Of a stretch of DNA of 64,000 bases, positions 28,471-55,167 are shown piece by piece (position 1 is the first letter of the stretch; each line of letters begins with the position of its first letter). Source of the stretch: Sphyrna mokarran (lineage: Eukaryota); assembly GCA_024679065.1 (NCBI GenBank), contig JAGIQG010000028.1:19716001-19780000 (forward strand), written 5' to 3'. The notes below the pieces were generated by a model. That model did not search any database. It had not been told where the DNA came from and saw nothing but the letters and a program-made list of their open reading frames with translations. The position numbers and the translations under genes are program-made.

Positions 28471-28645
28471 GATCAAGCTCTGCTGAATAATGCTGTGCAG
28501 ATTCTGAATACTTGGAACAAGGATGGTCGTGACCTTGATCCAGAAGTATTCCAGCGGCTAATAATCACAGCACGTTCCATCGCAATGATGCGACCCAATA
28601 ACCTTGTGCACTTCACAGAGGTGAAAGCACCACAAACGGATAAAG
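28471..28645 (+). CDS. UBR4: UBR4 exon w15
   Basis: gattag| [58 protein letters not shown]+G |gtgagc. Confidence 0.95.
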
Positions 28646-28707
28646 GTGAGCAAATTCAGTAAATACTGGAAGTATTCCAACAGGCTGCCTTATCAATAAG
28701 AGAATGG

Positions 28708-29515
28708 ATGAACATAGAACAGTACAGGGCCTTTGGCCCTCGATGTTGTGCTGAGTTATGTCCAAACCCAAGATCAAGCTATCCACTCCCTATCATTCTG
28801 GTGTGCTCCATGTACCTATCCAGTAATCACTTGAAAGTTCCTAAAGTGTCTGACTCCACTATCGCAGCAGGTATCACAGAATGTACATCCCAATCACTCG
28901 CTGAGTAAAGAATCTACCTTGGACATCTCTCCTATATCTCCCATGATGAACCTTATAGTCATGCCCCCTAGTTACAGCTACATCCACCTGAAAAAATAGT
29001 CTCTGCACATCCACTGTATCTATCTCCCTCATCATCTTATAAACCTTTAAGTTGCCTCTCATCTTCCTCCACTCTAAAGAGAAAAGCCCCAACTCTCTCA
29101 ATCTTTCCTCATAAAACCTACCCTCCAAACCAAGCAGTATGCTGGTAAATCTCCTTTGTATGCTCTCCAAGTGCTTCCACATATTCCTTATATGTGTAAG
29201 GTGCGGTGACCAAAACTGCACACAGTATTCTAAATGTGGTCTCTTCAAGATCTGGTATAGTTGCAGCATAACCCCACAGTTTTTAAGCTCAAACCCCCTA
29301 TTAATAAATGCTATAGGCCTTCTTCACGACTCTATCCACTTGGGGTGGCAACCTTCAGGGATCTGTGGATATGAACCCCTAGATCTCTCTGTTCCTCCAT
29401 GTTCCTCAGAACCCTGCCGTTGAACCTATAATCCACATTCAAGTTTGTCCTACCAAAATGAATCACCTTGCACTTATCAGGGTTAAACTCCATCTGCCAC
29501 TTTTCTGCCCAGCAG
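28708..29515 (-). mobile_element. CR1 3' fragment
   Basis: ORF 28874-29269 RPHLEYCVQFWSPH...GRFFTQRV; tail aacatagaacagtacag. Confidence 0.9.
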
Positions 29516-29799: not shown

Positions 29800-30570
29800 A
29801 TATTCTGTTAGGTCTCAGCTGATTTATAATTCAACTCATTTACCCATCTTTGATCCATATCTTTTGATATCCTTGCAGAATAAAATCTGGCTAACTTAGT
29901 TTTGAAAATTTTAACAGGCCCAACATCCAGAGGCTTTGGGTTGTGAGTTTCAGACTTTTATTACTCCTTGTACGGGAGAGAGGTGCGGAAACCACTGATT
30001 TCACTCCAGAGTGCCTAGATGTAGTCTGAATACCTTAATTAGATATCTACTTAATTGTCTAAACGTAAGGGACTATTAACCAGGTTTTTGTAACATTTCG
30101 TCATATTTAACCCATCAAGACCTGGTACCGTTCTGGTAAATCTGTATCCAACCCAAGGCCAGTAAATCTTTGCTGAGGTTAGCAGCCCAAAGCAGGCACA
30201 ACTGAAGTATTCCAGCGGCTAATAATCACAGCACGTTCCATTGCAATGATGCGACCCAATAACCTTGTGCACTTCACAGAGGTGAAAGCACCACAAACGG
30301 GTAAAGGTGAGCAAATTCAGAAAATACTGGAAGTATTCCAACAGGCTGCTGTATCAATAAGAGAATGGATGAACATAGAACAGTACAGGGCCTTTGGCCC
30401 TCGATGTTGTGCTGAGTTATGTCCAAACCCAAGATCAAGCTATCCACTCCCTGAAGTACAACTGAAGTATTGCTGCCTGCAGCCCCCTGAAGTAAAAACC
30501 CAACATTTCAGCAGATTTGTTGATTCCCTTTTTATGCCCTGCACTAGCTTTTTGGTGAAATTCTCATGAA
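29800..30570 (-). mobile_element. Old CR1 fragment interrupted by an exon-derived insertion
   Basis: cctggtaccgttctggtaaatctg...gcccaaagcaggcacaac...ccccctgaagtaaaaacccaacattt is collinear with the CR1 3' region across the insert. Confidence 0.55.
30204..30452 (+). repeat. 249-bp local duplication of 28543-28791 (exon w15 3' part, donor and CR1 tail)
   Basis: Direct alignment with about 5 substitutions; flanked by the 14-bp direct repeat ACAACTGAAGTATT (30198-30211, 30458-30471). Confidence 0.95.
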
Positions 30571-33362: not shown

Positions 33363-33784
33363 GTAAGGAATGAGAGATCTGAACAATGTTCAGCAAAATG
33401 CAGTGATGCATTATATTTTGAAATGTCTGTTTACAAATACTGTTAATGTTCACAAAAACAATGGATATACTGATTCCCTTTTACAAGCTTTGAAATCTGT
33501 ACAAAGTTGTACTGTTTAAAGGACAAAAATTACACCTTTTTGTGATAATTAAAAATGTATTTTTCATCTTCTGTCTTCCCTGCCTGAATAAAGGCAGTAG
33601 AGAACTATGCTTACAGTTCATCATTACATAAAACTGAATCGATCGCTGTTAGGAGTGGGAATTCTAATGCGTTGTGTATATGTTGTATCAGGTTTTCCTG
33701 TTTGCATGATTTTGCATTGAAGTGTAAGTGTTACTTGAACTCAAGCCCATACTGATTCCAAATCAGTAACCACAGAACATTAAA

Positions 33785-33967
33785 CAAAAAAAGAAAATGT
33801 TGGAAAATCTCAGCAGGTCTGGCAACATCTGTAAGGAGAGAAAAGAGTTGACATTTCAAGCCCAGATGACTCTCTGTCAAACTTTGATGCTGCCAGGCCT
33901 GCTGAGATTTTCCAGCATTTTCTCACTTGGTTTCAAATTCCAGCATGCGCAGTAATTTGCTTTCATC
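33785..33967. mobile_element. Penelope-type palindromic non-autonomous element (second family)
   Basis: 38-bp inverted repeats 33792-33829 / 33886-33923 (agaaaatgttggaaaatctcagcaggtctggcaacatc); relatives near 13270-13410, 34945-35020, 60285-60390. Confidence 0.7.
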
Positions 33968-45568: not shown

Positions 45569-45711
45569 CAGTAAGAAGTCTGACAACACCAGGTTTAAGT
45601 CCAACCGATTTATTTGATAGCAACTCACGATCAAATAAATAGGACTTAAACCTGGTGTTGTCGTGCTTCTTTACTACGTTCACCCCAGTCCAACGCTGGC
45701 ATCTTCACATC
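45569..45711. mobile_element. Penelope-type palindrome (centre deleted) with 12-bp TSD
   Basis: Near-identical to the arms of 1059-1261; AATGCTTGATGG at 45557-45568 and 45712-45723. Confidence 0.8.
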
Positions 45712-45723
45712 AATGCTTGATGG

Positions 45724-45835: not shown

Positions 45836-46204
45836 AAAGTTGCCATCTCTGAAGTACCCTGACTTGTCACCCTGTAAAGTATCCTAGCAAGATACAAAAC
45901 TACATAAAATATTCCTATTATACTAATGGGAGAAAAACTAAATCAGACTAAATCAATGACTGCAGCAGCATCTCAGGCCAAGATGAGTATATATCATTAT
46001 TCTTTGTTGTCCTTTGGTCAAAACCTTGGAATTGCTTGTATTTTGGATAAATGTACATGATAGAATCAGCACCACCACAAAGAAGGAGGTGCATTGACTC
46101 AGCCCATCTAGGGGTGGGCAATTTAAGTTCCTGTCATTCTGAACAGTAGGAATGCCATGCTCTCTCATATTAGCTGATAACATTTTCTCCGTTGTTTTTG
46201 ACAG

Positions 46205-46370
46205 AGAATACAAGCAGTCAGGAAGATCAACTCTGCACAGCTTTGGTCAATCAGTTGAATAAATTTGCTGACAAAGAAACTTTGATTCAGTTTTTGCGAT
46301 GTTTCCTATTGGAATCAAACTCCTCATCTGTGCGTTGGCAGGCTCACTGCCTTACTCTACATATCTATAG
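46205..46370 (+). CDS. UBR4: UBR4 exon w32
   Basis: tgacag| ENTSSQEDQLCTALVNQLNKFADKETLIQFLRCFLLESNSSSVRWQAHCLTLHIY+AG |gtaagt. Confidence 0.95.
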
Positions 46371-46824
46371 GTAAGTCAAGGGTCCTCCATTTCATTTAAA
46401 AGGGGATAAATACCAACATGCTCTGCTTAGGGCTGCTGGCCTGTTAATGTCGCAATCTGAATGCAATCTGAATGGTCTAAGCAATGCATGGCTGAACTTA
46501 GAGCCCTGTGTAGGAAGCTACAATAACAACAGCTGAGAGAAGTCAATTGTGGAGGTGTTTCTGGGTTTATAGCCAATTAGACACAATTCAATTTCAGTGT
46601 GACAAAGTTATAGCAGTATTTTAAGACAGAACTCCAGTTATCTTCCACAGAAGGCTTGAAAAAAATATATGTATAGAAATTAACAACAAATACTAGGAAG
46701 TTTTCTAACATCACTATGTTGGATATTGCAGTGGCATAAATGGGACCAGAAAATTGCAAATGAACATTAACTGAGTGAGCAAAATTGGATGATGGAATTC
46801 AATGTCGGGAAGTATTTTTTTTAT

Positions 46825-48440
46825 CGTTACTGACAATGCCAGCATTTGTTCCCTATCCCTAATTGTCCTTGAGAATACAGTGGTGAACCTAAATCATTTG
46901 CAATCCATCTGGTATGGTAACCACACGATGTTTTAGGGAATGAGTTCCAGGATTTTAACCCAATAACAATGAAAGAGTATTGATATATTTCCAAGTCAGG
47001 CTGGTGAGTGGCTTGGAGGGGAATTTTCAGGTGGTGATGTTCCTCTGCCTTTCTTGTCCTTGTCCTTCTAGACTGCAGATATAAAAACTGATGCTGAAGA
47101 ACTGTTGGTGAGTTGCTGCACTGCATCTCGTATATAGTGTACATATCTATCCATGTATGTCAGTGAATGAATGTTCATTCATTGGAAGTGTTGTTGGATG
47201 TGATGCTCATCCAGCCTCCAACAACCTCAATCATATTGCTTTGTGATAGGTATGACTGCAACCAGTGGTGAGTTTTCCCCTTGATGTCAAGAGCAGTTAC
47301 CCTCGTCTCCATTTTATCCTGGACGTGTTGAGCCTCTTGAATGTTGATGGAGTAGCGCTCTCAAGGCAAGTAGAGAGTAATCCATCATGTTCTTGACTTG
47401 AGCCTTGTAGATGGTGGGCAAGCTTTGAGAATCAGGAGATAAGTTATTTGCATCAGAAATCCCAATCTCTGACCTGCTTTTGTAGTTGCAATGTTTATAT
47501 GGCTGAACTAGTTCAGTTTTTGGCCAATGATAATCCCTCTGCACCCCACCTTGGGGTGCTAAGGGTGGGTGATCCAGTAATGGTATTGGCATTGAACGTC
47601 AAAGTGCAATGGTTAGATTCTTTCTTGTTGGAGATGATCATTGCCTGGCACTTGTTTTGCATAAATGTTGCTTGTCATTTATCAGCCCATGCCTGAATCT
47701 TGTACAGGCCTTGCTGCATACAGACATGGACTACTTCAATATCTGAAGAGTTGTAAGCAGTTCTGAACATTGTGCAAATATCAGTTATCTCATAATGGAG
47801 TGAAGGTTCATTGATGAAGCAACTGAATGGTTAGGCCTGGAACACTACCTTGAGGAACATCTGTACTTCTCACAGTCCCGGGGCTGAAATGATTGGCCTC
47901 CAATAACTACAATCATTTTCCTTTGTGATAGGTATGACTACAACCAGTGTTGAGTTTTCCCCTTGATGTCAAGGACAGTCACTCTCATCTTCCTTCTTGA
48001 GTTTCAGCTGTTTTGTCTGTGTTTGGGCCAATGTTGCAAAGAAGTCGGGAGCTGATTGGCGCTGTCGGAACTCAAACATCATCAGCATGCAGGTTATTTG
48101 GTGCACGAGTGTCATTTGATTGCACTGTCACTGACACTTTTCATTATTTTGCTGGTGATTGAGATGAACCTAATGGGTTATGTATGGCCAGATTGGGTTT
48201 GTACTTTTTTTTTTGTGGATAGGAAATCCTAAGCAATTTTTCACATGATCAGATCGTACTAGTATTGGAGCGAGACTGGAATAGTATGTCCAGCTACAAT
48301 AGTTGTTTAATTGTCTTCTACCATTTATGACTCAATGTACCAAGACTACAGAGCTTTGATCTGATCCATTGGCTATGGGATTGCTGAATTCTGTCTGTCA
48401 CATACTGCTTCCAGTGTTTGGAAAGTATGAAGTCATGTTG
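46825..48440 (-). mobile_element. Decayed LINE sharing its 3' tail with the SlmI-like SINE
   Basis: gccagcatttgttccctatccctaattgtccttgagaa is the reverse complement of the SINE tail; decayed RT C-terminus (TIYKAQVKNMMDYSLLA; SFIVIGLKSWNSFP). Confidence 0.75.
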
Positions 48441-48854
48441 TAGGTGCTGACATGTAAGTTGATTGTTGGAAATGGGGTTTTGGTGGTTCCTGAATTTGAA
48501 CTTAATGAACTACTTGTATGCTGTACATAAAATGTGAATGCCAGTGTGCATGGGTGGCTGCCATTTTGAAACATTAAAAAATATAAAACTGATAATTTAT
48601 ATTAAAGTAATTGTTAACAAATGCCTTTAACCACAATGAAAGTATTTGAAAACCAATAAAATTCATTGGCTTTGGCATCCGATAAAAAGAACTCATGGAA
48701 CTCCTTGAGACTTTTTAGCTATGGAGTCATCAGATACATCCCACTTGGATCAAATGTGGTGCTTTCAGTTTTAGGATCATCTGTCCACAACAAATCGTCT
48801 CTCATTCATCCATTGAATTGGATATTCTGCACCGTTTGAGTGCTCTGATGACAG

Positions 48855-49075
48855 TTAGAACATAGAACACTACAGCACAAACAGGCCCTTCGATCCACAA
48901 GTTGTGCCGATCATATCTATACTTACCAGGCCATTGAAGTATCTGTAACTCCCAATCCCATTAAATCCCATGTACTCATCCAGAAGTCTCTTAAAAGACC
49001 CCAGCGAGTTCGCCTCTACCACCACTGATGGCAACCGATTCCTTTCACTCATCACCCTCTGAGTGAAAAACTTAT
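48855..49075 (-). mobile_element. CR1 3' end
   Basis: tagaacatagaacactacagcacaaacaggcccttcg, same tail as the 5564 copy; FFTQRVMSERNRLPSVVVEA. Confidence 0.85.
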
Positions 49076-49254
49076 CTGAGTTGTGCATTAATGTCCCATT
49101 AGTTGATGACAAAACCTCACAAAACATCAAGCATTTGTATTTCCAATCTTTATGAAGGCTTATCCTCTCTCTCACAATTGGGAGGAGGATTAACTTAACA
49201 GCCTGGATTTCTCTTCTCCGTATCCATCCATAAACAGACAGGTTTTTATACGAA

Positions 49255-49600
49255 GATGATGTAGTAGCACTATCATCAGACTAGTAATCCAGAGGTCCAG
49301 GCTATGCACCAAGGAATGGCTGGTGGAATTTAAGTTCAATTAATAAAATCTGGAGTTGAAAGCTAATCGCAGTAATGGTGACCATGAAACAATGGTGACT
49401 TTCTGGTTTACTAATGTCCTTTCGGAAAGGATATATGCCGGCCTTACCTGGCATGTGACTCCAGAATGACAGCATTGTGCTTGACTCTGACTGCCCTCTG
49501 AAATGGCCTAGTGAGCCACTTAGTTCAAGGACAATTGAGGATGAGCAACAACTGCTGTTCTTTCCAGTGATGCCCACATTTCGTGAAAGAATTTTTAAAA
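49255..49600 (+). mobile_element. tRNA-derived SINE (SlmI-like)
   Basis: gactagtaatccagaggtccaggct...ctaatgtccttcggaagga...ctgccctctgaaatggcctagtgagccact...tgcccacatttcgtgaaagaa. Confidence 0.8.
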
Positions 49601-51099
49601 GCTGGTGGCGTATTTTTCCCAATGCTTAAGTTTGGAATGATCCAATCGCCTATTAGTAAACCAACAGCAAATCTGAGGTAAGATAAGATGAGGTTGGTTT
49701 ATATTATACACGTGCGCACACACACGCACGTAAGCAAAATGCAAGAAGAAGTTTTGCAACATCAGTTCCTTTTGCACTTGGACATTAAAAGTGGGATAAG
49801 GGAAAGAGAAAGGATACAGGGCAAGACCACGATAAATGTCCCTTGAGTTCACAATCACAAGTCCAATGGTGTTTCCCTTTAGAGGTTAGCAGGCTGAAAC
49901 TTGCAGGGTGATCAGTCTTCCCAGAGTGGGTACTTCCATGATGGAAGAAGGCATGCAGAGATGAATTTAATTTTGCAACCATTGATACAGGAATTCTGAT
50001 GTTTCCAGTACAGTGTGTAGATGAGGGCCAGGCAATTTACCTGGACAAAACTGATATTAGTTCCATACAGCAATATCACGTCGAACAACTTGGAGATGGT
50101 CATGTGACATACCTCCCATCAGTTCATCTGAGCTTTGGACAAAGGATGTATTTTTTTAGGTCTGGAATCTCAGGATATTTAATATAGGAGTCGGCATCCC
50201 TTTTGTCCTTGTTGGCATACCATCTCTACGGCCAGAGTTCCTCTTTTGAAATGTAAAAGGTATTGGTGCATTTCTTTGGAATTTGATTTGCTGCTTTCAT
50301 AAAGGGCATTAGTGCCTCTTTAAAGGTAAAGAGGTCTCTGCTGATTTCTGAAAGCAAGAAGTTTTGCAGTTTTAGTCAGGCAGGTCAGTTTGTCATTTTA
50401 AATATAAGATTTTATAAAGTAGTCAGTTTGACACATTTTTTCCTTCCCGTCTTTTGGACAGGGCATCTCCATCAGCCATCTGTATATTCCTTTTGGCTTG
50501 AACATAAATGATTTGTTGAGATATGCTTTCAAAGGTTAAACTATTGATTTTAGAACCGCTGGGTTTACTGCAATTTTGGTGTTAACTCTCAGACAAATCT
50601 TGATCTCCTGTTTATATGGAATCCAAAATGTGATCACATGGCACCTTTTCCACATTATCAACTTATAATTTCACTCTGTCATCAACCATCCAATCATTGT
50701 CATGGGCGTGCTTTAAAGTTCCTGTAGGAACTTGATTTTTGGTGTGGTTTTGCTTTTTAAAGTTACCATAGGTACTAATTTTGTTCTGTTGGCCATACAG
50801 TTTAATACTACTGTGAATTTCATCATCAAATACCCTGTGGTTTTCACTAGAACTGTTTTCAAACATTCCCATTGCATAGTTCAGTAGCTGGACACATCAA
50901 AATTCATTGGCATTTCTCCGTGTTATGCATGTGGCATAATGGGTACTTGTGTCATTATTGCTGATCAGATGAGAAACTGGAATCTGATCATTTTAGCATT
51001 ACGATGTTGCACTGTCTCTAAGTGATCTTGGTCTGATAGTACCAGAGCATCATGACTCTTGCAAGCTACTCCCAGTATAACCCTCTAATTTCATCTTTG

Positions 51100-51300
51100 A
51101 CTCCACTTCTGCACTTTTAAAACTGAACTCTAACTCTTCTAAACTGTCCTGCAAAATTATGTATAGATATATATCTCTCTCTTTATATTCTTTTCTCCCC
51201 TACATACCTTATGAACAGTATGTTTTGCCTGTATAGCATGCAAGAAACAATATCTTTCACTACATCCCAATACACAAGGTGATAATAACTCAAATCAAAT
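51100..51300 (+). mobile_element. LINE/SINE 3' tail (Rex1/Babar-like)
   Basis: gtatagcatgcaagaaacaatatctttcactac...ataataactcaaatcaaat. Confidence 0.55.
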
Positions 51301-51494
51301 TTTGATTCCATAAAGCAGCTACACAATTAGCTTTTGCGCTGAAATCTCTGCCAGGTCAAGGTTTACTTTGACTTGCTTAAGAGGGTATATCCATGTTGCA
51401 TTTCTAGTGACGATGAAACCTTTCTGACAATTTTCGAGGACCAATTTCATTACATGCTTCTCATAATCAGGCCAGTATCTGGTCTCTTTTCTTA

Positions 51495-51862
51495 TAAGAA
51501 ACAGGAGCAGAATTAGGCCATTCGGTCTATGAGATCTGCTCTGCCATTCAATCATGACTGATATTTTTCTCATCCCTATTCTCCTGCCTTAACCCCTGAT
51601 CTCATTATTCAAGAACCTATCTATCTCTGCCTTAAAGATACTCAGTGACCTAGCCTCCATAGCCTTCTGCAGCAAAGAATTCCACAGATTCACCACTCAC
51701 GGGCTGAAGAAATTCCTCTTCATCCCTATTTTAAAGGATCGTCCCTTTAGCCTGAGGTTGTGCCTTCTGGTTCTAATTTTTACTAATAGAAACATCCTCT
51801 CATGTCCACTCTATCCAAGGCCTCGCAATATCCTGTAAGTTTCAATAAGATCCCTCCTCATG
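51495..51862 (-). mobile_element. CR1 3' fragment
   Basis: taagaaacaggagcagaattaggccattcgg...gaattccacagattcaccact. Confidence 0.88.
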
Positions 51863-52877
51863 GCGCATTTGGTCATGCAAATCTTCAAGGCAGGTTCCTC
51901 CTCCTGTCCTTGCAGTTTTTTTTAAACACCAGATTTTCTTACTGCCGCACAATCACTTGATGAGTTATCAAATGTTGTAACTTTTAGCTTCATACTACTT
52001 GTGTTTTGTTGGAAGACTCATTATTATTTGTTGCTTGCAACGTGGGATCTGATCTGAGTGGGTGTACCTTGAAACCCCACTCACCTTTGCAACCCATTCT
52101 GTATTGCTTGCTGGATCCTTTGCATCCAGTGAGTAAAACTTGCATTTTAGGGACCAAAAGTTAAGGCTGATCACCAGTATACATTTATCATGTTGTAGCT
52201 GAGAGTATGCATAAAATGGATTTTTTTTAGGGTTTGGGGAAAATGGGATCATCTTTTATCCCACAGTTTATGGTTATTGTTGCATTGCCCAGCACCATTT
52301 ATGACTGGATGTGACAGGATTAGAGTTTTTACCTGATCCGTGTTTGTAAAATTGCTTGACTCTGTTACATGCTGTTATCCTCTCTGGCAAATCTAAAGTC
52401 ATCTACTTTAGACCCACAGCAGATAGATTAGAGTATTTTGTAAATGGCAAGAAAGATTTAGAATCCAAGTACAGAAATTACTAAATATTAGTGGGCAGAT
52501 AGGAAAAAAAAACTCAGCAAGTTTAAATGGTATGTTGGACTTTGCCTTGTGGGTGCTACAATACAATGAGGTGAAAGGTGTGCTTAGCTGTGCAGCCCTT
52601 GGTGAAGCCCAAAGGCTTCACAGATGTTGCAGGAACTCTTCATGTGTGGATCATGTGTGGAGTCAGCAGCAACAGGAAAGCGGGGAATTGTGTGGAGAGT
52701 CAGATCAGTAGCTGGTTAGTGGGAATGGGGGGGGCATTGCAATGGAGGTACTGAGGAGGTTGAGAACAGGGGACATGAAGTAGATGTGATGTCAGGTATG
52801 CCATGGGAACCCACTACCTCATGGTGGTGATTTGATTCATTGCCCATACCTATTTTTTTTTGATTTGTTGTGATTAG

Positions 52878-53022
52878 GAGCTCTGGCAAATCACAGCAAG
52901 AGCTGTTGCTGGACCTGATGTGGTCAATTTGGCCGGAGCTTCCAGCTTATGGACGGAAGGCTGCACAATTTGTTGATCTGCTGGGATATTTCTCGCTCAA
53001 GACTCCACAGACTGAAAAAAAG
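52878..53022 (+). CDS. UBR4: UBR4 exon w33
   Basis: gattag| (R)SSGKSQQELLLDLMWSIWPELPAYGRKAAQFVDLLGYFSLKTPQTEKK |gtaaga. Confidence 0.96.
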
Positions 53023-53149
53023 GTAAGAAAAGTTCAATAAACTGTGGCTGACTGACGTTTGTTATATGATAACTGTTGTAGAGATTTTGGTTGCTTTGCA
53101 AGTTCCGATTGGTGCTGAATACAACTTGTCACCTTTATTCTTGTCCTAG

Positions 53150-53235
53150 TTGAAAGAATATTCACACAAAGCAGTCGAGATTCTTCGTACTCAGAACCAT
53201 ATTCTCACCAACCACCCCAACTCCAATATTTATAA
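53150..53235 (+). CDS. UBR4: UBR4 exon w34
   Basis: tcctag| LKEYSHKAVEILRTQNHILTNHPNSNIY+AA |gtgagt. Confidence 0.96.
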
Positions 53236-53386
53236 GTGAGTAATATTTATTTAAACGTCTGTCCTTTGATATAAGTGAGCGTATCATATGTCCATCTGGA
53301 ACTGTTGAAGAGATGCTGCAGTGTACTTTTATGCTGCTTACATAATTCATAATGTTCCTATTTTTTCTGCTTTCATTTTGTTCCAG

Positions 53387-53474
53387 CATGCTGTCTGGTC
53401 TAGTTGAGTTTGATGGCTATTACCTAGAAAGTGATCCATGTCTTGTCTGTAATAACCCCGAGGTACCATTCACT
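53387..53474 (+). CDS. UBR4: UBR4 exon w35
   Basis: ttccag| (N)MLSGLVEFDGYYLESDPCLVCNNPEVPFT |gtaagt. Confidence 0.96.
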
Positions 53475-53948
53475 GTAAGTATAGAAGTACACCTGCCTCA
53501 GTATGTGCCTGACATTGCAATAAGCTCTACCATTAAGTTTTATCCTTTCCTCTGGAAAGTTGTTCCTTGAGGGTGTAAAGACTTGTGGCCCTCTCTGTCA
53601 TTGTTAGCAGTTTTTACCACAAGTAATATTGTTTCGTCATCTGCTCAGTTACTTCTCAGGTGGTTTTGAAAGAAACCAATTGTATAGCTTTCTGTTGATA
53701 TGGTCACTAACAGTTAAATCAGCATGTCAACAATACCATTTCACAGAAACCTTCCACTTCCTGATGATTGAGTGACGTTCCTTTTGGGTAAAGCGGCTTC
53801 CCAGAATAATGTTTTCATTAGAGAGATCAATAATTGAAACTGGCCAATGGAATAAATCTCACACTGAACTGTTAGTTGCCTTGGTACTTTTGTTTTCTCG
53901 TGTACTTTATCCATGTAAATTAAGACTACCAAAATTTTATTTCTTCAG

Positions 53949-54142
53949 AATATTAAACTTTCATCAATCAAGGTAGACACACGCTACACGACCACGCAGC
54001 AAGTGGTGAAACTGATTGGCAGTCACACCATCAGCAAAGTGACTGTGAAGATTGGAGATCTAAAACGCACTAAGATGGTTCGTACCATCAACTTGTACTA
54101 CAACAACAGAACCGTGCAAGCTATTGTAGAACTAAAAAATAA
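53949..54142 (+). CDS. UBR4: UBR4 exon w36 (second DOC-like domain)
   Basis: cttcag| [64 protein letters not shown]+AA |gtgagt. Confidence 0.96.
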
Positions 54143-54329
54143 GTGAGTATCTGGCAATGACATTAAAGTCCTTGTAAACAATGAGGGATGAATATTTAGT
54201 CTTATCCTCTCCATAAGCAGTCTGTGCAGTTTGCGCATTGATTCTGACTGAATTATTGTGTGCTCGGGCTTTTTTAATAAATATCATCTTGCCACTCTTT
54301 ATACTTTGAGGTGAAAGTTTTTTTTACAT

Positions 54330-54760
54330 GACTGTCAGCTTTGATTTGGTGGTAGCGCTCTCACCTCTGAGTTCAGAGGTTGCAGACCCCATTCCACAGA
54401 TTGAGCACATTATCTGGGCTGACGCTCTAGTACAGTACTGAGAGAATGTGGGCTATTAGAAATGCTTTCTTCCGATGAGACGTGAAACCATCTGCTCTGT
54501 CATGTGGACGTACAGGATCCCATAACACTATTCAGAAAAGATCATAGGAGCTTTCCTATTGTCCTGGCCAATGTTTATCCCTTAGTCCACATCACTAAGT
54601 CAAATGCCTGGCCATTTATTTCATTGTTGTTTGGGGGTTTTGTCATGCATACATTGGATACAGCATTTCCCCAGCAGTGACTACACTTCATAATTGGCTG
54701 TGAAGTGCTTTGAAACATTGAGTCGCAAAAGGCCGTCATAATTACAAATTCTTTCTTGAA
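54330..54760 (+). mobile_element. Deu-domain SINE (SacSINE1/AmnSINE-like)
   Basis: tRNA-like head tggtagcgctctcacctctgagt; Deu-like core gtcctggccaatgtttatcccttag; tail tgtgaagtgctttgaaac. Confidence 0.7.
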
Positions 54761-54927
54761 TGGGAAACACAGCCAGAAGACAGTATTTGCCTTTTCTGCT
54801 TGATCATTTTAGGTGATTTTAATAGCAACAGGATAATCAGATACTTTAAATTTTACAGTTTATAACGTGACCTGAAGTCAAAAGTTGTGATTTTTGTCTC
54901 ACCAACTAACTGACCGTCTCTCCTTAG

Positions 54928-55167
54928 GCCTGCTCGTTGGCACAAAGCTAAAAAAGTCCAATTAACACCAGGTCAGACTGAAGTGAAGATCGACCTCCCG
55001 CTCCCCATTGTAGCATCAAACCTCATGATTGAGTTTGCAGACTTTTATGAGAATTACCAGGCATCAACAGAAACCTTGCAATGTCCACGCTGCAGTGCGT
55101 CTGTCCCTGCCAATCCAGGTGTTTGCGGTAACTGTGGGGAGAACGTGTATCAGTGTCACAAATGCAG
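54928..55167 (+). CDS. UBR4: UBR4 exon w37 (Cys-rich Zn-binding region)
   Basis: ccttag| (K)[41 protein letters not shown]...[28 protein letters not shown]+AG |gtgagt. Confidence 0.97.

Follow-up and report, generated by a model that had tools for sequence, protein, structure and literature searches.

Passer (PS, DD35D) elements are cut-and-paste transposons of the pogo superfamily whose transposase carries, in this order, a Brinker-type domain (Brk), an HTH_Tnp_Tc5 domain, DDE_1 and an acidic tail; their terminal inverted repeats are short (<30 bp) and start with CCGTA, and their target is TA (PMC7386202, PMC9976928). Table S1 of PMC9976928 lists Passer for six chondrichthyans, namely Leucoraja erinacea, Chiloscyllium punctatum, C. 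plagiosum, Hydrolagus affinis, Amblyraja radiata and Pristis pectinata, and gives the Amblyraja element as 1817 bp with CCGTA ends, with which our locus is compared by description. The genes POGK and POGZ were domesticated from Passer (PMC7386202) and show that it can fuse with a host domain (KRAB, zinc fingers).

The window, 64,000 nucleotides of Sphyrna mokarran DNA, holds a fossil that is very probably a member of this family: judged from its sequence, the whole fossil would be a Passer transposon of ~1.8 kb lying antisense in one intron of a gene that, by its exon matches, is vertebrate UBR4 (Table 1). It resembles the described Passers in the order of its domains, in a catalytic core that is 31-38% identical to invertebrate-type references, in a length of ~1.8 kb without inserts and, weakly, in candidate 25-nt CCGTA-type ends. 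In contrast to them, the window copy is long dead: damage affects its catalytic positions and has removed the second-Asp region, it contains stops and at least four frameshifts, five later inserts interrupt it, and it has no intact TA duplication. It shares transposase ancestry with POGK and POGZ as well, yet whereas these are intact, under purifying selection and carry their added domain N-terminally, here the catalytic domain is split by a foreign segment and no open frame is left.

The transposase remains

A phmmer search with the main frame of the preliminary description, which had reported a fossil DNA transposon with Sola-like catalytic motifs joined to a homeodomain, gave a sole library match, the DDE_1 fragment P0001 (E 3e-4). 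From P0001, 61 metagenome loci were reached, and 33 of 48 long open reading frames from these loci matched the window, all inside 51474-50467. The reference transposases, picked via P0001, are all Passers, and monophyly with Passer against Tigger, pogoR, Fot, Lemi and Mover is presumed; DDE_1 and HTH_Tnp_Tc5 were found in all eight references scanned, and BrkDBD exceeded its cut-off in six of them.

Aligned to these references with frameshifts allowed, four of the six expected transposase segments scored above all 300 nulls and in the correct order, while two were without significance (151/300 and 80/300 nulls as high). The DDE_1 core matched the 17-sequence Passer profile (hmmsearch iE 1.9e-19), and the element scored 188, compared with at most 33 for the best 5-kb block elsewhere in the window. 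The remains are collinear, from the Brinker-type domain (52002-51913, aligned to profile positions 9-38) through the Tc5 HTH (60% identity across 25 residues by tblastn) and DDE_1 to the acidic C-terminus. Two of these pieces, 52002-51913 and 48852-48761, had been overlooked in the preliminary description.

All three catalytic sites of DDE_1 are affected: the codon of the first Asp is short by one base (~50918), the region of the second is deleted (~50650) and the third reads Lys. A base at 50920 is present in three of three other runs and gives N-M, as in the N-M-D of the references. The DD35D spacing, 35 in the reference Passers, is not countable in the window copy because the second-Asp region is lost; the NT…PL(D) spacing is retained.

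Pfam gave no DDE_1, HTH or Brk match in the window's own frames (six whole frames and pieces), and a word-based homolog search with the true Passer frame found none among 285 candidates, which shows its low sensitivity here; with the minus frame starting at 51119 it found none among 932. P0001 had no match in the PDB, positions 46000-55000 had none in Rfam, and a viral-contig scan returned 0 loci.

Table 1. Features of the Passer fossil, its inserts and the neighbouring exons, in window coordinates
Feature	Position	Strand	Evidence
UBR4 exon upstream of the intron, human residues 3386-3436	46216..46368	+	phmmer vs PDB UBR4 chains, E ~1e-28
Candidate 3' terminal inverted repeat, heavily decayed	48438..48462	+	rank 3 of 127,948 sites; best of 660 in zone; weak
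Transposase C-terminus (…ISNSMDE / DDLLW…)	48650..48852	-	score 57.8, 0/300 nulls; tblastn 5/17 references, best E 0.28; 48852-48761 program-aligned, remainder to ~48650 by eye
Young LINE 3' end, presumably CR1-type	48853..49078	-	X2, X6 and X10 contigs join 48852 to 49079; bin depth 2.6 million in X1
Decayed putative Passer piece, end of DDE_1	49079..49248	-	by eye and position only; not significant, 80/300 nulls
Presumed SINE (orientation likewise presumed)	49254..49598	+	ends by eye; bin depth 13,000-28,000 in X1; orthologous contigs enter; common to three other runs
Nested insert of ~906 bp, splits DDE_1	49599..50504	.	no Passer match (34/100 nulls as high); no family match
QICCWFTNRR, homeodomain helix-3-like motif inside the insert	49646..49675	-	Pfam Homeobox_KN E 0.06, 13.6 bits vs cut-off 24, 12 residues; HoxB1 E 1.6
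CxCx4Hx4C knuckle-like string, in a frame different from the helix-3 motif	49821..49859	-	chance level, 0.51 expected per 64 kb
DDE_1 core, three frameshifts	50506..50951	-	hmmsearch iE 1.9e-19; tblastn 17/17 references, best E 4.7e-16; score 196.9, 0/300 nulls
Linker, HTH to DDE_1	50952..51094	-	alone not significant, 151/300 nulls; 3/17 references reach 51006, in another frame
High-copy tail, presumably LINE-type	51095..51298	.	ends by eye; depth ~178,000 in bin 51201-51381; loose ends at 51210; common to other runs
HTH_Tnp_Tc5 DNA-binding region (WPDYEK…IVTRN)	51299..51493	-	score 43.2, 0/300 nulls; tblastn E 5e-5; 51474-51397 program-aligned; recognised via references, no direct Pfam match
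LINE 3' fragment, presumably CR1-type	51494..51862	-	depth >100,000; X2 and X6 contigs enter; common to other runs
N-terminal Brinker-type DNA-binding region	51913..52002	-	score 38.4, 0/300 nulls; tblastn E 0.037; no direct Pfam match
Candidate 5' terminal inverted repeat	52249..52273	-	rank 27 of 127,948; best of 790 in zone; weak
Next UBR4 exon, human residues 3439-3485	52882..53022	+	phmmer E ~1e-25

Ends, later inserts and proposed history

The preliminary description had found no terminal inverted repeats. Ranking all sites by a CpG-aged profile built from 16 reference Passer ends yields a weak candidate on either side; the two arms are identical at 12 of 25 positions, with 8 further transitions, and are flanked by TG (3') and AA (5'), each one change from TA. 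The profile scores highest at 46353, where a chance site, the UBR4 splice donor, outranks both candidates, and a free alignment of the two element ends was non-discriminating, its scoring being lenient (null mean 115). A direct repeat (48303-51 / 52277-325), which looks like two LINE fragments, was rejected as the element ends: its copies share one orientation and lie in high-copy bins. With the five inserts removed, the length is 1786 bp, most boundaries being set by eye; this is a normal length for the family, in which intact Passers range from 1.6 to 4.0 kb.

The younger CR1, SINE and tail inserts of the preliminary description are real. In their bins, summed contig depth, which is no copy number, exceeds the local single-copy level by factors that range from hundreds to >100,000. 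Three other runs (X2, X6, X10) hold the orthologous fossil together with the ~906-bp insert at 7-9% divergence; all three skip the CR1 at 48853-49078, which is specific to the window's lineage.

We propose that a Passer transposon of ~1.8 kb inserted antisense into the UBR4 intron. By analogy with its family, the live transposase would have bound short terminal repeats starting with CCGTA through two DNA-binding motifs, and its DD35D triad would have excised the element and inserted it at TA (PMC7386202, PMC9976928). The copy would later have taken up the unrelated ~906-bp insert, the SINE, the LINE tail and the CR1 fragment, all common to the three other runs, and the final event would be the CR1 present only in the window's lineage.

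The nested insert and its homeodomain-like motif

The supposed homeodomain that had been described as joined to the transposase lies inside the ~906-bp insert that interrupts DDE_1, and so does the Cys/His-rich segment that had been counted as part of the protein. Insert and SINE together are bounded by TA (50506-50505 and 49248-49247), and the transposase resumes past the insert, at 48852-48761. The insert is apparently repeated elsewhere in the genome: its summed depth is 64-263, compared with ~14-16 for the locus's own contigs (run X1; depth is no copy number). No family was matched by it in the Pfam searches, nor in NCBIfam with six frames. In the ESM Atlas, an 81-residue plus-strand frame gave no more than leads of 0.75-0.76.

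As part of the nested insert and not of the transposase, the motif is most likely a product of chance or a functionless relic. It shares with homeodomains (TALE/Homeobox_KN, Hox helix 3) the string QIxxWFxNRR, and the WFxNxR signature of helix 3 is present at 49675-49646; unlike in them, helices 1-2 are unsupported, scores stay far under the cut-off and the motif sits in a nested insert. What is seen is a helix-3-like motif and no whole domain: no homeodomain of ~60 residues reached the family threshold, and the PDB gave no match with 76 residues and E 1.6 with 40. The helix-3 frame had no match in the word-based homolog search (12 candidates) and no usable one in the ESM Atlas. AlphaFold2 returned pLDDT 57 and pTM 0.34 for the homeodomain-like frame, where a single long helix replaces helices 1-2 (a weak, single-sequence model), and Foldseek found no match to that model. 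The WFTN codons match the SINE in inverted orientation over 12 nt and no further, probably by chance. Among the best literature matches, as far as titles and the start of abstracts go, none describes an animal DNA transposon with a homeodomain, a weak negative.

An ordinary Passer could nevertheless have received part of a different repeated element, or a piece captured from a gene, that truly encoded a homeodomain, which we consider unlikely. The motif is rare, as Q[IV]xxWFxNxR was absent from all 150 simulated windows of 64 kb and [IV]xxWFxNxR averaged 0.04 per window, and the best Pfam and PDB matches, though weak, are both homeodomains. A pyrimidine-rich run ending in CAG precedes QICCWFTNRR and could be a splice acceptor; presumably, such a site before I-x-x-W-F-x-N-R-R marks a common homeobox intron position. 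All four runs suggest that the insert is repeated; among the joints listed, 50047-50134 is carried by 2-4 contigs in each of them. However, the motif was picked after the fact, a full phmmer search of its frame found no match for the insert, the 95-residue open frame around it is ordinary (P 0.41), and the low pTM and the empty Foldseek search, both from a single-sequence model, speak weakly against it. Over ~49500-50050, which includes a CA/GT-rich tract at 49709-49732, the orthologous contigs fall short by 22-23 nt, and their divergence there, ~7%, is similar to that of the flanks. That the insert is part of an old, uncatalogued repeat family of this vertebrate lineage which carried a genuine homeodomain, perhaps as a captured homeobox exon whose splice acceptor still precedes helix 3, is likewise unlikely.

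It is improbable that a non-autonomous Passer subfamily was amplified as a composite, with the insert as cargo. Passer pieces and insert both exceed single-copy depth and both are present in all orthologs, yet the bin at their junction (50477-50657) is near single-copy in four of four runs with higher neighbours: 20.8 vs 15.9, 20.5 vs 18.1, 2.5 vs 2.0 and 10.9 vs 9.3, bearing in mind that this bin also includes a private deletion, that depth does not measure copy number, and that joints were judged among those listed. The TA on both sides also fits a local insertion.

Other assignments of the transposase, and significance

Given that the reference set consists of Passers only, the fossil might belong to another pogo family, be it Tigger, pogoR or Fot, or be a pseudogene of the POGK/POGZ type; POGK has the same layout of Brk, HTH and DDE, and POGZ pseudogenes are reported from cartilaginous fish (PMC7386202). 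We regard this as very improbable: the Brinker-type segment matches with 0/300 nulls as high, while BrkDBD is given only for Passer and POGK, and POGK is described as mammalian (PMC7386202); its candidate ends look like Passer repeats, and it has the length of a Passer.

The reading as a Sola-like DDD transposase with a fused homeodomain, forming an undescribed family, is largely refuted and has almost no likelihood left, although a decayed cut-and-paste DDD transposon is indeed present. Passer itself is already on record in the shark lineage that the preliminary description suspected, through the six chondrichthyans listed (PMC9976928). Sola1/2/3 share the DDD cut-and-paste mechanism, and that is their one likeness to the window element, in which no Sola motif is in frame and DDE_1 accounts for the DNA. 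The quoted peptides, which may resemble Sola catalytic motifs, do exist on the minus strand in the order described (WPDYEKHVMK 51474-51445, HLISNNDTSTHY 50971-50936, CGKGAM 50654-50637, VPCDHILDSI 50644-50615, QEIKICLR 50610-50587, PSPSC 50099-50085), but they are scattered over all three frames, and Passer aligns with this DNA in other frames (E 1e-19). The first of the quoted pieces, WPDYEK…IVTRN, is the Passer HTH; most of HLISNNDTSTHY is contained, off-frame, in the linker. The D-N-x-x-x-(H/Y) motif is at chance level (DxNxxx[HY] 6 vs 10.2 expected; the looser [DN]Nxxx[HY] 29 vs 26), and SNNDTSTHY sits in a frame not used by Passer. Since G[KQ]GxCD is absent from every single frame of the window, GKG(P)CD must be a join of two frames, made across the second-Asp deletion. 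The transposase C-terminus, finally, lies beyond the supposed homeodomain (48852-48761). The silence of Pfam does not by itself exclude Sola because it had no Sola model as of 2017 (PMC5751038); the 4-bp AWWT target of Sola1 (PMC3845634) is not seen at the window's candidate ends, which are decayed.

In summary, the Passer fossil at UBR4 is ordinary, a further dead copy of the family within an intron of a vertebrate, and of little significance. Greater importance would arise only if the nested insert were a repeat family with a true homeobox; such a repeat would have spread homeobox sequence genome-wide, landing here at a Passer-internal TA. The locus illustrates that a frameshifted pogo transposase, when read off-frame, can imitate the motifs of a different superfamily. 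For the lineage itself, the fossil may serve as a shared-insertion marker: the fossil and four of its inserts are older than the split from the three other sampled runs, whereas one CR1 is younger.

Identification of the transposase

The element region lies inside one intron of the vertebrate UBR4 gene, which is encoded on the plus strand. Pfam gave no match in the six frames of the window, the Passer domains included. A phmmer search against 1.84 billion proteins, using the frame with SNNDTSTHY, CDHILDSI and the helix-3 motif QICCWFTNRR, returned a single match (E 3e-4), P0001, a database protein whose DDE_1 fragment stands at the family cut-off. Residues 20-66, in its N-terminal part, seem to be a Passer transposase read out of frame, and they matched window sequence misread in the same way.

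Using P0001, 61 metagenome loci were retrieved. They contain 48 plus-strand ORFs of at least 200 residues, of which 33 match the window, all inside 51474-50467. A domain scan of eight long ORFs found DDE_1 and HTH_Tnp_Tc5 in all eight, with BrkDBD above the cut-off in six, below it in one and absent in one; the reference ORF alignment shows DD35D. This domain set is the Passer layout, as described in PMC7386202 and PMC9976928.

A profile built from 17 of the 48 ORFs, leaving out short ones and near-duplicates, matched the window at 51000-50503 (iE 1.9e-19). In an alignment that allows frameshifts, the element reached a score of 188, while no other 5-kb block, nor the plus strand, exceeded 33. 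The segments, each compared with 300 random window segments scored by the same alignment, are collected in the table together with the UBR4 exons.

Transposase remains and neighbouring UBR4 exons in the window
Feature	Position	Strand	Evidence
UBR4 exon	46216-46368	+	matches human UBR4 residues 3386-3436
Transposase C-terminus	48852-48761	minus	0/300 nulls as high
Passer piece	49079-49256	minus	not significant, 80/300 nulls; placed by position and eye
DDE_1 core	50951-50506	minus	0/300 nulls as high
Linker	50940-51120	minus	not significant, 151/300 nulls; placed by position and eye
HTH	51474-51397	minus	0/300 nulls as high
Brinker region	52002-51913	minus	0/300 nulls as high
UBR4 exon	52882-53022	+	matches human UBR4 residues 3439-3485
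Later UBR4 exon	53952-54143	+	64/64 residues identical

The preliminary description had tentatively read Sola-like catalytic motifs here (Sola profiles are published as PMC5751038 File S1; other literature consulted comprises bioRxiv 2021.09.26.461848 and PMC3845634). The peptides that it quoted were all found on the minus strand, roughly where it had placed them and spread over three frames. The Sola reading of them is not supported. The Passer HTH accounts for WPDYEK…IVTRN (60% identity across 25 residues), HLISNNDTSTHY lies in a frame that differs from the one used by the Passer alignment at the same place, and GKG(P)CD joins two frames at a gap of ~9-11 reference residues, the second-Asp region being included in the loss. 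The true first-Asp motif, with one base missing, is found downstream of HLISNNDTSTHY at ~50924-50896, where the base at 50920 giving N-M (N-M-D in the references) is present in all three other sequencing runs. The third-Asp position is Lys in the window copy. A six-frame search of the window found G[KQ]GxCD in no single frame, and DxNxxx[HY] strings occur at chance level (6 observed versus 10.2 expected).

The nested insert and its helix-3-like motif

The transposase core ends at 50506, and further transposase sequence is recognised near 49248 by eye and near 48852 by score; between them lie a SINE and an insert of ~906 bp, with TA on either side of the two together. The class names SINE, CR1 and LINE tail are presumed here or follow the preliminary description. 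The ~906-bp insert did not resemble Passer (nulls as high in 34 of 100) and contains, in two frames, PSPSC, the Cys/His strings and QICCWFTNRR. Of the homeodomain proposed to be joined to the transposase, the helix-3-like motif is present; its joining to the transposase is not supported, as the motif sits in the insert.

That the insert carries a true homeobox is, in our view, improbable. In favour of a homeodomain, the strict motif had 0 occurrences in 150 simulated windows, its best matches are Homeobox_KN in Pfam (E 0.06, 12 residues) and HoxB1 in PDB (E 1.6), and a pyrimidine run and CAG stand directly ahead of QICCWFTNRR; many homeobox genes have an intron at the corresponding position. 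However, the motif was picked after the fact, and homeodomain support was absent from PDB (76 aa), full phmmer, ESM Atlas, a word-based homolog search and NCBIfam (the insert's six frames). The open frame of 95 codons is unremarkable (P 0.41), the knuckle-like Cys/His string is at chance level (0.51 expected per window), and the single-sequence structure model is poor, with no fold match. The available part of PMC10027918 makes no mention of homeodomains.

In run X1, summed depth, which is not copy number, is 64-263 across the insert, while the contigs of the locus itself stand at 14-16, and the joint 50047-50134 recurs in 2-4 contigs of each run among the joints listed, a minority of all; the insert therefore seems to have relatives elsewhere in the genome. 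The Passer/insert junction bin is near single-copy depth in 4/4 runs.

Orthologous copies and candidate element ends

Genome comparison covered four of 13 runs (X1, X2, X6 and X10), X1 containing the window locus itself and perhaps being where it came from. The other three hold the orthologous fossil at ~7-9% divergence, with insert, SINE, tail and the 51494 CR1 all in place and the young CR1 (48853-49078) missing from each. Across ~49500-50050, divergence is ~7%, similar to the flanks (5-9%), and relative to the window the contigs of the three runs lack 22, 23 and 23 nt; our guess is that the missing bases are a CA/GT-rich tract of 24 nt within the proposed homeodomain. X2 and X6 also have ~29 additional bases at 50051-50052, within the nested insert, that the window lacks. 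In these same two runs, two contigs share the 17 bases 52303-52319 and then diverge, which suggests that those genomes carry another insertion, accompanied by a duplication of 17 nt.

An end profile from 16 reference Passer ends, with CpG decay modelled in, gave 48436(+) and 52275(-) as best sites in the zones beside the coding remains (ranks 3 and 27 among 127,948). The 25-nt candidate arms share 12 identical bases plus 8 transitions, and bases 48444 and 48445 in X2 and X6 add two matches to the right arm. The terminal-repeat evidence is weak: the top-ranking site is a splice donor at 46353, and TA is absent from both flanks. Without the five inserts, ortholog-derived ends being available for one, the span 48438-52273 comes to 1786 bp, within the size range of intact Passers (1.6-4.0 kb, several ~1.7-1.8 kb; PMC9976928).

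Elsewhere in the window, 33775-33940 is a 55-nt inverted repeat (82%, 56-nt spacer) resembling, by eye, the start of the 'Passer' sequence given for Chiloscyllium plagiosum in Table S1 of PMC9976928. The CTGCC ends listed for that entry may accordingly be those of another small element. Two related near-palindromes, 1049-1261 (arms 80 nt, 94%) and 45569-45713 (39 nt, 82%), have 55 nt in common at 96% and look like small hairpin-type non-autonomous DNA elements. A 249-nt direct repeat (28543-28791 and 30204-30452, 98% identity, 1661 nt apart) may stem from a local duplication of recent date, from short terminal repeats or from an error of assembly, and a 100-nt one in the element's UBR4 intron (47214-47313 and 47896-47995, 86%) probably represents two pieces of one LINE.

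Proposed history of the element

The Passer insertion would have come first; the ~906-bp insert, SINE, tail and first CR1 would have arrived before the sampled lineages split, and the young CR1 last. When live, the element would have moved like other Passers, by end binding, excision and insertion at TA (PMC7386202 and PMC9976928). Given its damage and neutral-looking divergence, it is most likely inactive today. Passer is listed for at least six chondrichthyans in PMC9976928 Table S1, and the window element, previously put forward as a candidate undescribed shark family, is very probably a newly found dead copy of this already known family.
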